Shown here one piece after another: positions 38,270 to 44,890 of a stretch of DNA of 64,000 nt (position 1 is the stretch's first letter; every line of letters begins with the position of its first letter). The stretch is from assembly GCA_963674735.2 (NCBI GenBank), contig CAXXQS010000001.1, forward strand, positions 1-64,000, given 5' to 3'. The notes beneath the pieces were generated by a model. That model searched no databases. It had not been told where the DNA came from and saw only the letters and a program-made list of their open reading frames with translations. Source of the DNA: Myxococcota bacterium. GTDB taxonomy: Bacteria > Myxococcota_A > SURF-8. Made by a program: the position numbers and the translations under genes.

Positions 38270-38660
38270 ACCGGTTCCGCACAAGTAGCTGGGGAGGCGA
38301 TTGACTGTCTGAAACAGTAGGTCGGACAGATTCTTTGTCCGACACATGAATTGTCGGGCACATTGTGCTCGACCTACGTGGCTTGGTTTCGCCATTGCCC
38401 GAATGATGGGCAACAAGTTGCCCATCCTACCTTTCTGCACCCTCACCCGTCGACCCATGGTCGGCGACCTCTCCCCCTAAGCAGGAACCGGGCTCTGTCC
38501 TGTTCCGCATGGTTGTCTCGATCTTTCATCACAAACGGCCCATCCGAGACAAGGCAGGAGCCCGTCACAGACGCGCTCCAACAGGAGGGTCGGACAAATT
38601 CTTTGTCCGACAATTATAATCTCCCTTTTTGTCGGACAGAATATCTGTCCGACCTACAGC
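38270..38660. repeat. Mosaic of REP-like palindromes (BIME/REPIN-like)
   Basis: GTAG-gtcggacaga..tgtccgac at 38317-38344 with an inverted partner at 38630-38657 and a third copy near 38585-38612; gatgggcaacaagttgcccatcctac at 38405-38430. Confidence 0.85.
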
Positions 38661-43120: not shown

Positions 43121-43364
43121 GTCGATCTGAAGGCCTTCGTGCCGGAGTTGGTTTCCGAAAAGGCGGACGCATCGGGCGGCTGGACGCGCGGTTTCGTCAT
43201 CGCAGAACGCACGGGGCGGCCACCTTCGTCGGAGCAGGGCTCCTGTCCTGCTCTGATGGTTTGTCTTCAAACAAGGTTTTGCCATGTTTCCGGCGGAGAC
43301 GGTCCGGGTGAAAAGATCAAGACAAACTTGCGGAGCATGACAGAATAGTAGCGACTGTTATCGG

Positions 43365-43370
43365 TGTCAA
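43365..43370 (-). promoter_or_regulatory. -35 box (TTGACA) of the circle-junction promoter
   Basis: Overlaps the transposase stop; lies exactly 17 bp from TATTAT (44518-44523) once the ends are joined through one CT core. Confidence 0.8.
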
Positions 43371-44302
43371 GCGAAATTCGGGTTCCAGGCTTCGTTTTTC
43401 CGCATCATCGTGTTGAGAATGAGGACCAATTTTCGCATGCAGGCCACCACCGCCGTCATCTTCGGTTTGCCGCGTCCGACCAGCCGCTGGTAGTGTCCGC
43501 GAATCACCGGGTTGTGTTGAATCGCCACCAGCGTCGGCATGTAGAGCGCCGTGCGCAGGCGATGACGACCGCCGCCGGTCATGCGTTTACCCCGAAACGT
43601 TCCGCTGTCCCGATTCATGGGCGCCACGCCGATCAACGCCGCGATCTGCCGCCGGTTGTAGATCCCCAGCTCCGGCAGATCCGTCACCAGAAGATTCGCC
43701 GTGCACGCGCCGACGCCCGGCATCGTTTGGAGCCGCGCGGCCCGGTCGCTGCGCTCCCGATCCGATGCAATGGCCGCCGCGATGGCCCGATCCAGCCGCT
43801 CGATTTCCCGTTCGATCACCTCCAGAATGCGGTGCAGGCTTTGTCCGATCGTCCGATCGCCCACGTGTTCGGTGCGGTTTTTCTCCATCGTGCGCATGGC
43901 GACCAGCTGCCGCCTCCGTGAAGACAGGGCTTTTAACAGGAGGGCGGTTTCGCCGAGCGTTTCGTTCGGTGCGGGACGCATGGCGGCTGCGTAGCGTGCG
44001 ATGATGCCCGCATCGAGTCGATCCGTTTTCGCCATCACGCCGACGGCGCGGGCATAATCCCGGATGCGCCGGGGATTGACCACCGCCACCGGCCAACCCG
44101 CTTTCTGAAGACGTTTGCACAGCTCCCGTTCGTAGCCGCCGGTGGCTTCCATCACGACGCCCTCCACCTCGATCCGCTTCAACGAACGGACGAAGCGTGT
44201 CATGCCGGCTTTGGTGTAAGCGTAGCGGACGCACGTGCTTTCGCCGTCGACGGCGACATCGAAAACGGCTTTGCTGACGTCGATCCCGATCCATTTCTTC
44301 AT
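43367..44302 (-). CDS. IS110 family DEDD recombinase/transposase
   Basis: GIDVSK, MEATG, KTDRLDA (D-E-D-D), PGVG, catalytic-Ser motif RDSG, GG..LR.ALYM, A.MRKL. Confidence 0.96.
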   Translation of the reverse strand: MKKWIGIDVSKAVFDVAVDGESTCVRYAYTKAGMTRFVRSLKRIEVEGVVMEATGGYERELCKRLQKAGWPVAVVNPRRIRDYARAVGVMAKTDRLDAGIIARYAAAMRPAPNETLGETALLLKALSSRRRQLVAMRTMEKNRTEHVGDRTIGQSLHRILEVIEREIERLDRAIAAAIASDRERSDRAARLQTMPGVGACTANLLVTDLPELGIYNRRQIAALIGVAPMNRDSGTFRGKRMTGGGRHRLRTALYMPTLVAIQHNPVIRGHYQRLVGRGKPKMTAVVACMRKLVLILNTMMRKNEAWNPNFA

Positions 44303-44511
44303 GGCGCACCCTTCCTTGCCAATACGGGCTCATTTCGATTACAATGGCCCCTGCGACTGTTCGGGTTTTCCCGGACGAAACGGACGGCGGATCCGGCTAC
44401 AAAACGGGCTCATCAGGCCCCAGGATGGGACGATCTCGCCGCCCACCACGGCCTCCCGCTTGCTACGGGAGGTCGTTTCATCTTATCATCACAAACGATG
44501 ACAGTCGCTTG
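44303..44511 (-). ncRNA. Predicted bridge RNA (5' stem-loop, target-binding loop, donor-binding loop)
   Basis: Stem-loop at 44449-44475; target guides CCCAUCCU (44422-44429) and GUAG (44397-44400); donor guides ACAGUCGC (44353-44360) and CAAG (44315-44318). Each guide pair flanks an internal hairpin. RNA ends are inferred. Confidence 0.85.
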
Positions 44512-44517
44512 AAAGGG

Positions 44518-44523
44518 ATAATA
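44518..44523 (-). promoter_or_regulatory. -10 box (TATTAT) of the circle-junction promoter
   Basis: Two bases inside the left CT core, pointing into the predicted bridge RNA. Confidence 0.8.
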
Positions 44524-44525
44524 CA

Positions 44526-44600
44526 AGGATGGGCAACTTGTTGCCCATCGCGACATCAGACTAAACTCCTTGAAGATGGGCAACAAGTTGCCCATCCTAC
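44526..44600. repeat. Inverted pair of GTAG REPs (REPIN); the left copy is interrupted by IS110
   Basis: (gt)aggatgggcaacttgttgcccatc...gatgggcaacaagttgcccatcctac. Confidence 0.88.
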
Positions 44601-44890
44601 CACTGAAACTATTTGAATGTCTCAAACAGGGTTGCCCCCTGCTGGAGCGTGTCTTCCGATAGGCTCCTATTCCGCCCATACTTCGCTCCCTGCGCCGTTG
44701 CGGCGATTGACCGCAACCGCCGATTTTCGCCGTTTCGACAAAATCGCGTCGTCACCCCTAAATTTAGCCGCTTTGCCGGGGGGAGGTGGCGATGCGCTTA
44801 ATGCGTTCGTTGCGCCGTTTCGAGCCGGTCGTGGTTGCTTTTCGTGAAATCATTGGGTTTTTCGCCCGCGAGTTGGGGGGTAAAATAGTA

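Follow-up and report, generated by a model that had tools for sequence, protein, structure and literature searches.

Does the non-coding left end of an insertion sequence in a Myxococcota genome encode an RNA that designates both the ends of the element itself and the site into which it inserts? The locus that raises this question lies within positions 1 to 64,000 (forward strand; 64,000 nucleotides, hereafter the window) of contig CAXXQS010000001.1 of a Myxococcota bacterium (GTDB lineage Bacteria; Myxococcota_A; SURF-8; NCBI GenBank assembly GCA_963674735.2). We found there an IS110-family insertion sequence on the minus strand (44525..43350; 1176 bp counting one CT core). A sequence-only reading of the window had taken it for a recombinase gene preceded by a bridge-RNA-like guide that matches both the donor junction and a repetitive extragenic palindromic (REP) target. 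Our analysis indicates that it is very probably a canonical bridge-RNA element, an intact representative of the family's IS110 group with probable recent activity. Every hallmark by which IS110-group bridge-RNA elements are recognized at the sequence level is present, and the analysis shows the element's anatomy, its number of copies, the specificity of its sites, and covariation both within the RNA structure and between guides and targets.

Element boundaries, genomic copies and target sites

We searched the host genome (5.26 Mb, 3 contigs) for copies of the element by BLAST. Eight copies were found, all 100% identical over 1175 bp, and the same BLAST search of the 5.26-Mb genome found no fragments of the element. 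The boundaries were placed at the points where the flanks of the eight copies diverge. On the minus strand, the left flank ends with ...GTTGCCCATC-CT (core at 44527-44526), the element starts with TGTATTAT at 44525 and ends with ...TAACAGTCG-CT (core at 43351-43350), and the right flank opens with AC. The CT dinucleotide stands at both junctions in all eight copies, in agreement with the earlier proposal that target and donor share a CT core. The span proposed for the element, 43350-44527, proved exact to the base, comprising the insertion sequence and both CT cores. The sole long frame in the element (44302..43367, minus strand) encodes 311 amino acids; the left end (LE) has 223 non-coding nucleotides and the right end (RE) has 17. 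A 4-bp subterminal inverted repeat, GATA...TATC, brackets the 14-bp donor. This layout is in keeping with the IS110 group, which is characterized by a long non-coding LE, a short RE and a subterminal repeat of just 2-3 bp at the donor. Such a repeat of at least 3 bp is found in 10 of 16 orthologues, as opposed to 4.6% of mismatched (cross) pairs.

All eight copies have an identical 24 bp on the left, a REP unit ending in CCCATC-CT, and AC on the right, and the flanks beyond these differ. In the window, the REP unit (GATGGGCAAC-AA-GTTGCCCATC followed by the core CT; 44526..44549, minus strand) contains the left target (LT) GCCCATC at 44534-44528, next to the core, and the right target (RT) AC follows the other core directly at 43349-43348. 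The comparison of genomic copies suggested by the sequence-only reading thus returned the same CCCATC-CT-AC site for all eight, each insertion being placed between ...GATGGGCAACAAGTTGCCCATC-CT and AC. The perfect 11-mer GCCCATCCTAC occurs 16 more times without an insertion, always within a REP unit (16/16). With eight perfect sites occupied and 16 free, about one third of them are in use.

One free site (44590-44600) lies close to the element, in a partner REP (44576-44601) that is convergent with the occupied REP and 40 bp away from it and has GCCCATCCTAC on the other strand. A second free perfect site in the window is located at 38420-38430.

The public sequencing runs listed for the organism, three from one study, include none of RNA; in their contigs, the element appears as a single 1202-nt piece (43348-44549). 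Its depth is 78.7 and 90.7, compared with 16.5-17.8 and 8.8-10.5 for the flanks, which is four to ten times higher; this fits a multi-copy repeat and says nothing on mobility.

A predicted two-module RNA structure upstream of the recombinase gene

The left end folds better than its shuffled sequences (232 nt, z -3.57; 205 nt, z -3.08; 0/200 shuffles as good in either case). RNAalifold analysis of seven sequences (the element and six orthologous left ends) produced two modules, each with a long stem around an internal loop and a short hairpin. The first internal loop is recovered by RNAalifold and by single-sequence folds, and the second is backed by the alignment and by covariation. The sequence-only reading had described a 5' hairpin and two internal loops in a region of ~225 bp, and this agrees with the 223-nt LE. 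On the minus strand, the fold has a smaller hairpin (44501-44486) and a 5' stem-loop, CCUCCCG-UAGCAAG-CGGGAGG (44472-44452). These are followed by a target-binding loop (TBL) module (44382..44444; outer stem 44444-44432 with 44393-44382, inner hairpin 44420-44406) and next by the donor-binding loop (DBL) module (44309..44365; outer stem CCC 44365-44363 with GGG 44311-44309, inner hairpin 44350-44326).

A covariance model of both modules (R1), a check that the earlier reading had proposed, was built from the seven sequences. In the window, R1 scores 143.3 bits at 44306-44447, and its matches at two other places are not credible (E 0.15 and 0.41). A full-length R1 match (E <= 1e-5) lies directly upstream of the recombinase gene in 20 of 21 sources; the remaining source, L044, has no match at this threshold. 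Nineteen of the 20 loci with a recombinase match of ~300 amino acids carry R1, and the remaining R1 match (L018) belongs to a partial gene. When 80 metagenome loci are added, R1 matches 93 of 97 sources, and the four misses all have less than 130 nt ahead of the gene.

In an alignment of 20 sequences, 96.2% of the cells form standard pairs and 21 of the 29 pairs have changed on both sides. None of 500 shuffles attains any of the five covariation measures, and sliding the partners by 1-3 columns lowers pairing to 25.6-45.3%. The sequences themselves show changes in the outer stems, such as CCC/GGG becoming CUC/GAG in module two.

GGAAGGG (44309-44315, minus strand), which forms the 3' side of the DBL stem, is at the same time the one sequence resembling a Shine-Dalgarno site; it precedes the ATG by 6 nt, and this spacing recurs in the four same-order orthologues. 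With GGAAGGG serving both purposes, RNA folding may be in competition with recombinase translation.

Three weak Rfam matches near the element (E 0.18-0.42) were rejected as chance matches: one to sX15, on the opposite strand, and two to mir-1285. The latter two fall on the convergent REP pair (44523-44600, both strands; E 0.18 and 0.26, far below the gathering score) and are an artefact of the long palindrome.

Guides for target and donor

Both loops contain sequences that match the element's own surroundings. In loop 1, the left target guide (LTG) UCCCAUCCU (44430-44422) reads in the same sense as the top strand of the target, GCCCATC-CT, and matches it at 8/9 positions, and the right target guide (RTG) GUAG (44400-44397) is complementary to CT-AC. 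The proposed match of loop 1 to GCCCATC-CT-AC on opposite strands, through CCCAUCCU (8/9) and GUAG (4/4), holds for all eight copies. In loop 2, the left donor guide (LDG) ACAGUCGC (44360-44353) is in the sense of ACAGTCG-C, where ACAGTCG is the left donor (43358-43352) adjoining the core CT at 43351-43350. The right donor guide (RDG) AUUGGCAAG (44323-44315) pairs through CAAG with CTTG, continues with a G-T wobble, skips two nucleotides and pairs through AU with AT. The sequence-only reading had matched ACAGUCGC and CAAG to the two strands of the ACAGTCG-CT-TG junction; we recover this match and can extend it to ACAGTCG-CT-TGTAT (LDG plus AU..GCAAG). The guides are 9 nt (LTG), 4 nt (RTG), 8 nt (LDG) and 2 + 5 nt around two unpaired nucleotides (RDG). 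A scan of the 64-kb window for the composite patterns finds one instance of CCCATCCT-N15-30-GTAG (0.04 expected) and two of ACAGTCGC-N20-40-CAAG (0.14 expected), one of the two being the right end itself.

The nucleotides that directly follow the right guides show a handshake pattern. After GUAG come the TBL handshake positions CC (44396-44395), the first of which can pair with donor position 7 (G) and not with target position 7 (C). After CAAG, the G of the DBL handshake positions GA (44314-44313, directly after the RDG) can pair with the target C and not with the donor G. The same is seen at the first handshake position in 16 orthologues: in the TBL, the non-cognate pairing (donor position 7) is found in 15/16 and the cognate target pairing in 2/16, and in the DBL, the non-cognate pairing (target position 7) is found in 12/16 and pairing with the own donor in 3/16.

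Two possible extensions of these patterns were rejected. As a general feature, the second handshake position fails: it does not track the target in the same-order genome G004, although the A pairs with target T6 in the window element. Extension of the RTG past GUAG gives no match here, and the flanks beyond AC vary among the eight copies.

Covariation of guides and targets among orthologues

We surveyed ten genomes of the same order, including that of the host, for recombinase relatives at E <= 1e-40. Five of the ten, the host's own included, hold one. Where the REP arm of a same-order element reads CCCGAC, its LTG is CCCGACCU, and where the arm reads CCCATC, the LTG is CCCAUCCU. The element of G009 (protein 59% identical) has a CCCATC-type REP and the LTG UCCCAUCCU. 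In G004 (62%, 8 copies), CCCGAC-CT is found on the left in 8/8 copies and AC on the right in 7/8, and the LTG is UCCCGACCU. The same LTG occurs in G003 (54%), which has CCCGAC at five of six loci. The element of G006 (57%) has the LTG UUCCGACCU and a degenerate REP (GATCGAC), and the adjoining REP reads TCCGAC. Together these cases illustrate cleanly how related elements follow the REP variant of their host genomes: the LTG has AU for CCCATC and GA for CCCGAC.

Two sites are off the consensus: L031 in G004 has TC in place of AC on the right, and L032 in G003 has AACGGAC in place of CCCGAC on the left. These sites suggest some natural tolerance of mismatches.

The correspondence extends to more distant elements. 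Three metagenomic elements (L056, L057 and L058; 53-54% identical) have the target GCCCATC-CT-AC and the same LTG as the window element, and the target of L063 is ACCCATC-CT-AC. In more distant elements both guides are altered: one combines the target ACCGCCC-CT-AC with the loop ACCGCCCC, and further distant RTG pairs are CT-TA with UAAG, CT-CG with CGAG and CT-GGTTA with UAACCAG. Over 13 representatives, the summed match between own guide and own flank is 100, compared with 56.4 +/- 6.6 for permuted flanks (0/20000). In 89 of 93 elements, the LDG 7-mer followed by CT recurs downstream of the gene, exactly in 83 and with one mismatch in six. Pairing of the RTG with its own right flank beyond the core averages 4.03 nt versus 0.54 +/- 0.11 nt when permuted (78 distinct loops, 0/5000), with runs of 0 in five of the 78 elements counted as misses. 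Identity of the LTG to its own left flank is 4.71/7 versus 3.38 +/- 0.12 (52 distinct loops, 0/5000), the left boundaries in this larger set having been set from the RDG alone. The test of guide/target covariation named in the sequence-only reading therefore came out in its favour: both LTG and RTG follow the flanks, and 0/5000 permutations attain the observed match.

In a Gemmatimonadales metagenome-assembled genome (L009:2435-2560), an incomplete second copy of the element's own LE comes right after the RE, and the flanks do not fit the guides; a nested or tandem insertion is one possible cause.

The recombinase

The 311-aa protein encoded at 43367..44302 (minus strand) contains the Pfam domains PF01548 (DEDD_Tnp_IS110; 3e-22) and PF02371 (Transposase_20; 8.3e-19). 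It also passes the NCBIfam model NF033542, 'IS110 family RNA-guided transposase' (218.3 bits, cut-off 140); this model, NCBI's own, already labels such proteins RNA-guided transposases. A phmmer search against solved structures returned only ISCro4 (3.2e-37) and IS621 (1.3e-34), each across residues 4-300. Residues D8, E52, D94 and D97 of the RuvC-like DEDD domain and S233 and G234 of the Tnp domain align with D11, E60, D102, D105, S241 and G242 of IS621 (chain 8wt6_A, whose numbering is the native IS621 numbering plus two), which have been named as the composite active site (PMC11208158). Eleven aligned orthologues all keep these catalytic columns (DEDD and S-G) unchanged. The earlier identification of a DEDD/Ser recombinase of 311 amino acids is upheld by both Pfam domains, NF033542 and the alignment of all five IS621 catalytic residues. 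The protein is the sole member of its 90% cluster and has no name; among the relatives found, the closest show 62% identity (a same-order genome) and 53-54% identity (metagenomes).

A predicted promoter at the circle junction and a leader complementary to the donor

Joining of RE to LE would give TTGACA-17-TATTAT, which agrees with the consensus at 11/12 positions, and the two hexamers are 17 bp apart only when the ends are joined. The -35 hexamer TTGACA (43365..43370, minus strand) overlaps the TGA stop codon (43369-43367), and the -10 hexamer TATTAT (44518..44523, minus strand) occupies LE positions 3-8, within the right donor region. A -35 and a -10 separated by 17 bp across the junction are found in 12 of 16 orthologues, and ten of the 16 score at least 9/12. 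In the integrated state, the -10 has a poor -35 partner (TGGGCA-18-TATTAT, 9/12), and the REP hairpin with the T-rich element start scores as a terminator-like site (44549-44528). In the preprint on ISPpu10, such an arrangement of REP hairpin and T-rich start is described as insulating the resident element (10.64898/2026.03.19.712850).

A candidate outward promoter from the RE, which would combine TTGACA with a TATTCT of the flank at a spacing of 17 bp (43342-43370, minus strand; 10/12), was rejected: it is confined to this copy, and the other seven flanks have no comparable -10.

Where the transcript is predicted to start, the 11-nt leader segment CAAGCGACTGT (44511-44501, minus strand) is exactly reverse-complementary to the donor junction ACAGTCG-CT-TG (11 bp: left donor, CT and TG). 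As RNA, it pairs with the LDG at -12.5 kcal/mol (0/300 shuffles), and the minimum-energy fold prefers this helix over the outer stem of the DBL. In the circle, the leader and the donor junction would make up an 11-bp inverted repeat around the -10. A leader/donor match of 8-9/9 is found only in the window element, L021 and L022, and one of 7/9 in L056 and L067. The repeat was rejected as a family-wide trait: across 35 elements, the leader matches its own donor at 5.23/9, compared with 4.92 for donors of other types and 4.89 for shuffled leaders. For L045, the leader is a better fit to a different donor type than to the one it belongs with, and the donor type is not clearly followed. The literature passages on IS621 and ISPpu10 make no mention of such a repeat. 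We regard the leader as a clade-specific lead rather than a finding, and its role is unexplained. One speculative and rather unlikely idea is that the bridge RNA in this clade carries a built-in mimic of its own donor, acting either as an RNA that shuts the DBL or as a DNA operator. In the former case, the leader would pair with the LDG and keep the DBL shut until displaced by the recombinase or the donor; in the latter, the 11-bp inverted repeat around the junction -10 would serve as the operator. If true, the mimic would add a layer of self-regulation absent from the passages on IS621 and ISPpu10.

Proposed mechanism and alternative explanations

By analogy with IS621, the element would leave its site in circular form through the action of its own recombinase and RNA. 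Joining of RE and LE would set TTGACA 17 bp from TATTAT and create a strong junction promoter, which would transcribe an RNA of ~200 nt from the LE and raise the levels of both the RNA and the recombinase. The first internal loop would pair with the REP target and the second with the donor junction, in which the RDG AU..GCAAG is predicted to pair discontiguously with the top strand of CT-TGTAT. The RNA would bridge the donor junction and a free REP site, and a tetramer of the 311-aa DEDD/Ser recombinase would cleave after the CT core and exchange strands. Insertion would take place at the base of the REP hairpin, with CT on one side and AC on the other. In this scheme, production of the RNA, its binding to the recombinase and catalysis are extrapolated from IS621, and the element itself may be active and reprogrammable.

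Several observations weigh against this interpretation. The LTG has a mismatch at position 1 (U against the target G), and minimum-energy folds of the single sequence lack the DBL outer stem and pair the LDG with the 5' leader instead. The alignments behind the structural covariation were fitted to the covariance model and hence lean towards the structure, and no Rfam family reaches its gathering score anywhere in the 64-kb window. The eight host copies are identical, so the guide/target covariation comes solely from orthologues; these elements are kin, and the permutation figures overstate their independence. Thirteen of 52 elements have an LT identity of 3/7 or less, partly because the left boundaries were inferred from the RDG, and L009, which adjoins a partial copy of its own left end, has an RT match of 0. 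The contigs of the three runs contain neither a circle junction nor an empty site at this locus.

The missing circle junction would also be expected if the element were a true IS110 member that has become silent or defective, its copies being chance relics and its RNA no longer guiding. The poor -35 in the integrated state (9/12) and the REP hairpin with a T-rich tail ahead of the LE could be read in the same way. However, relics would have diverged, whereas the eight copies are 100% identical over 1175 bp and each has an open 311-aa frame with the catalytic residues; weak expression in the integrated state is, moreover, reported as normal for IS621 (PMC13626964). We consider such a silent state improbable. 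More improbable still is that the structure of the left end is a mere 5' leader controlling translation, the protein reading the REP hairpin and the guide matches being incidental. In its favour, GGAAGGG of the second loop doubles as a ribosome-binding site that precedes the ATG by 6 nt, every natural site is a REP hairpin, and the target hairpin of ISPpu10 is reported to raise efficiency (10.64898/2026.03.19.712850). The same preprint, however, gives sequence complementarity as the primary determinant (10.64898/2026.03.19.712850). In addition, the loop sequences of the orthologues shift with the flanking target while the stems stay paired, and the composite loop patterns are far above chance.

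An intact, probably recently active bridge-RNA element remains the best explanation by a wide measure of belief, and the claim that it is intact and compact is supported by the open 311-aa frame, the catalytic residues, the eight identical copies and a predicted RNA of ~200 nt. It is one more orthologue of a known mechanism, the understanding of which it leaves unchanged, and it is of modest practical value as a defined and apparently active orthologue. Bridge recombinases are under development as programmable tools for insertion, excision and inversion, and useful orthologues have come from screens of natural orthologues. With its compact size (311 amino acids and an RNA of ~200 nt), evidently recent mobility and defined natural target and donor, the element is ready for an orthologue screen.

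Comparison with known systems

IS621 of Escherichia coli is the bridge recombinase in which target- and donor-binding RNA loops were described (PMC11208160, PMC11208158). The IS621-type architecture attributed to the window element by the sequence-only reading is present at the sequence level in all its parts: the recombinase, the loops, the guides, the CT core, the junction promoter and the handshake positions. Both elements have the same domain order and all five catalytic residues, and in both the LE encodes an RNA with a 5' stem-loop, a TBL and a DBL. The LTG of 9 nt, the RTG of 4 nt and the LDG of 8 nt are also common to both, as is a discontiguous RDG (2+5), which in IS621 follows a nine-on-seven pattern (A157-U158/C162-G165; PMC11208158). 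From the start of the LTG to the start of the LDG there are 70 nt here and 73 nt in IS621. Further shared features are the REP target, the sigma-70 promoter at the junction and the logic of the handshake. Integrated IS621 is reported to be weakly expressed as its normal state, and its excision is inefficient and relies on read-through transcription (PMC13626964).

The two elements differ in other respects. The proteins are distant (123 bits over residues 4-300; 311 amino acids versus 326, the solved chain having 328 residues), and the LE is 223 nt long versus 191 nt, with an extra small hairpin and the LDG-complementary leader. The suggestion that target and donor differ from those of IS621 holds in part. 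The left target half is GCCCATC here and ATCAGGC in IS621, whose full target is ATCAGGC-CT-AC (PMC11208160), and the left donor has CG at positions 6-7 where IS621 has AT; the core and the right target AC are identical, and the right donor TGTAT following CT equals the IS621 donor positions named in PMC11208158. Among relatives with a solved structure, ISCro4 (9t56), likened by protein alone, has the top score (3.2e-37, 131.5 bits, residues 4-300).

In its choice of site, the element resembles ISPpu10 of Pseudomonas putida (10.64898/2026.03.19.712850), which like ISPpu9 of that species is an IS110 element that targets REP sequences. Both insert at the foot of a REP hairpin, the 3' arm of which is the left target; in both, the targets are often convergent REP pairs, and the REP hairpin with the T-rich start forms a terminator-like structure before the integrated element. 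ISPpu10 is reported without a 5' stem-loop, whereas the window element has one. The IS1111 group with its seekRNA elements shares the DEDD/Ser recombinase family and RNA-guided site choice (PMC11208160). In IS1111, however, the RNA is located in a long RE and the subterminal inverted repeats are 7-17 bp; here the RE has 17 nt, the RNA lies in the LE and the repeat is 4 bp.

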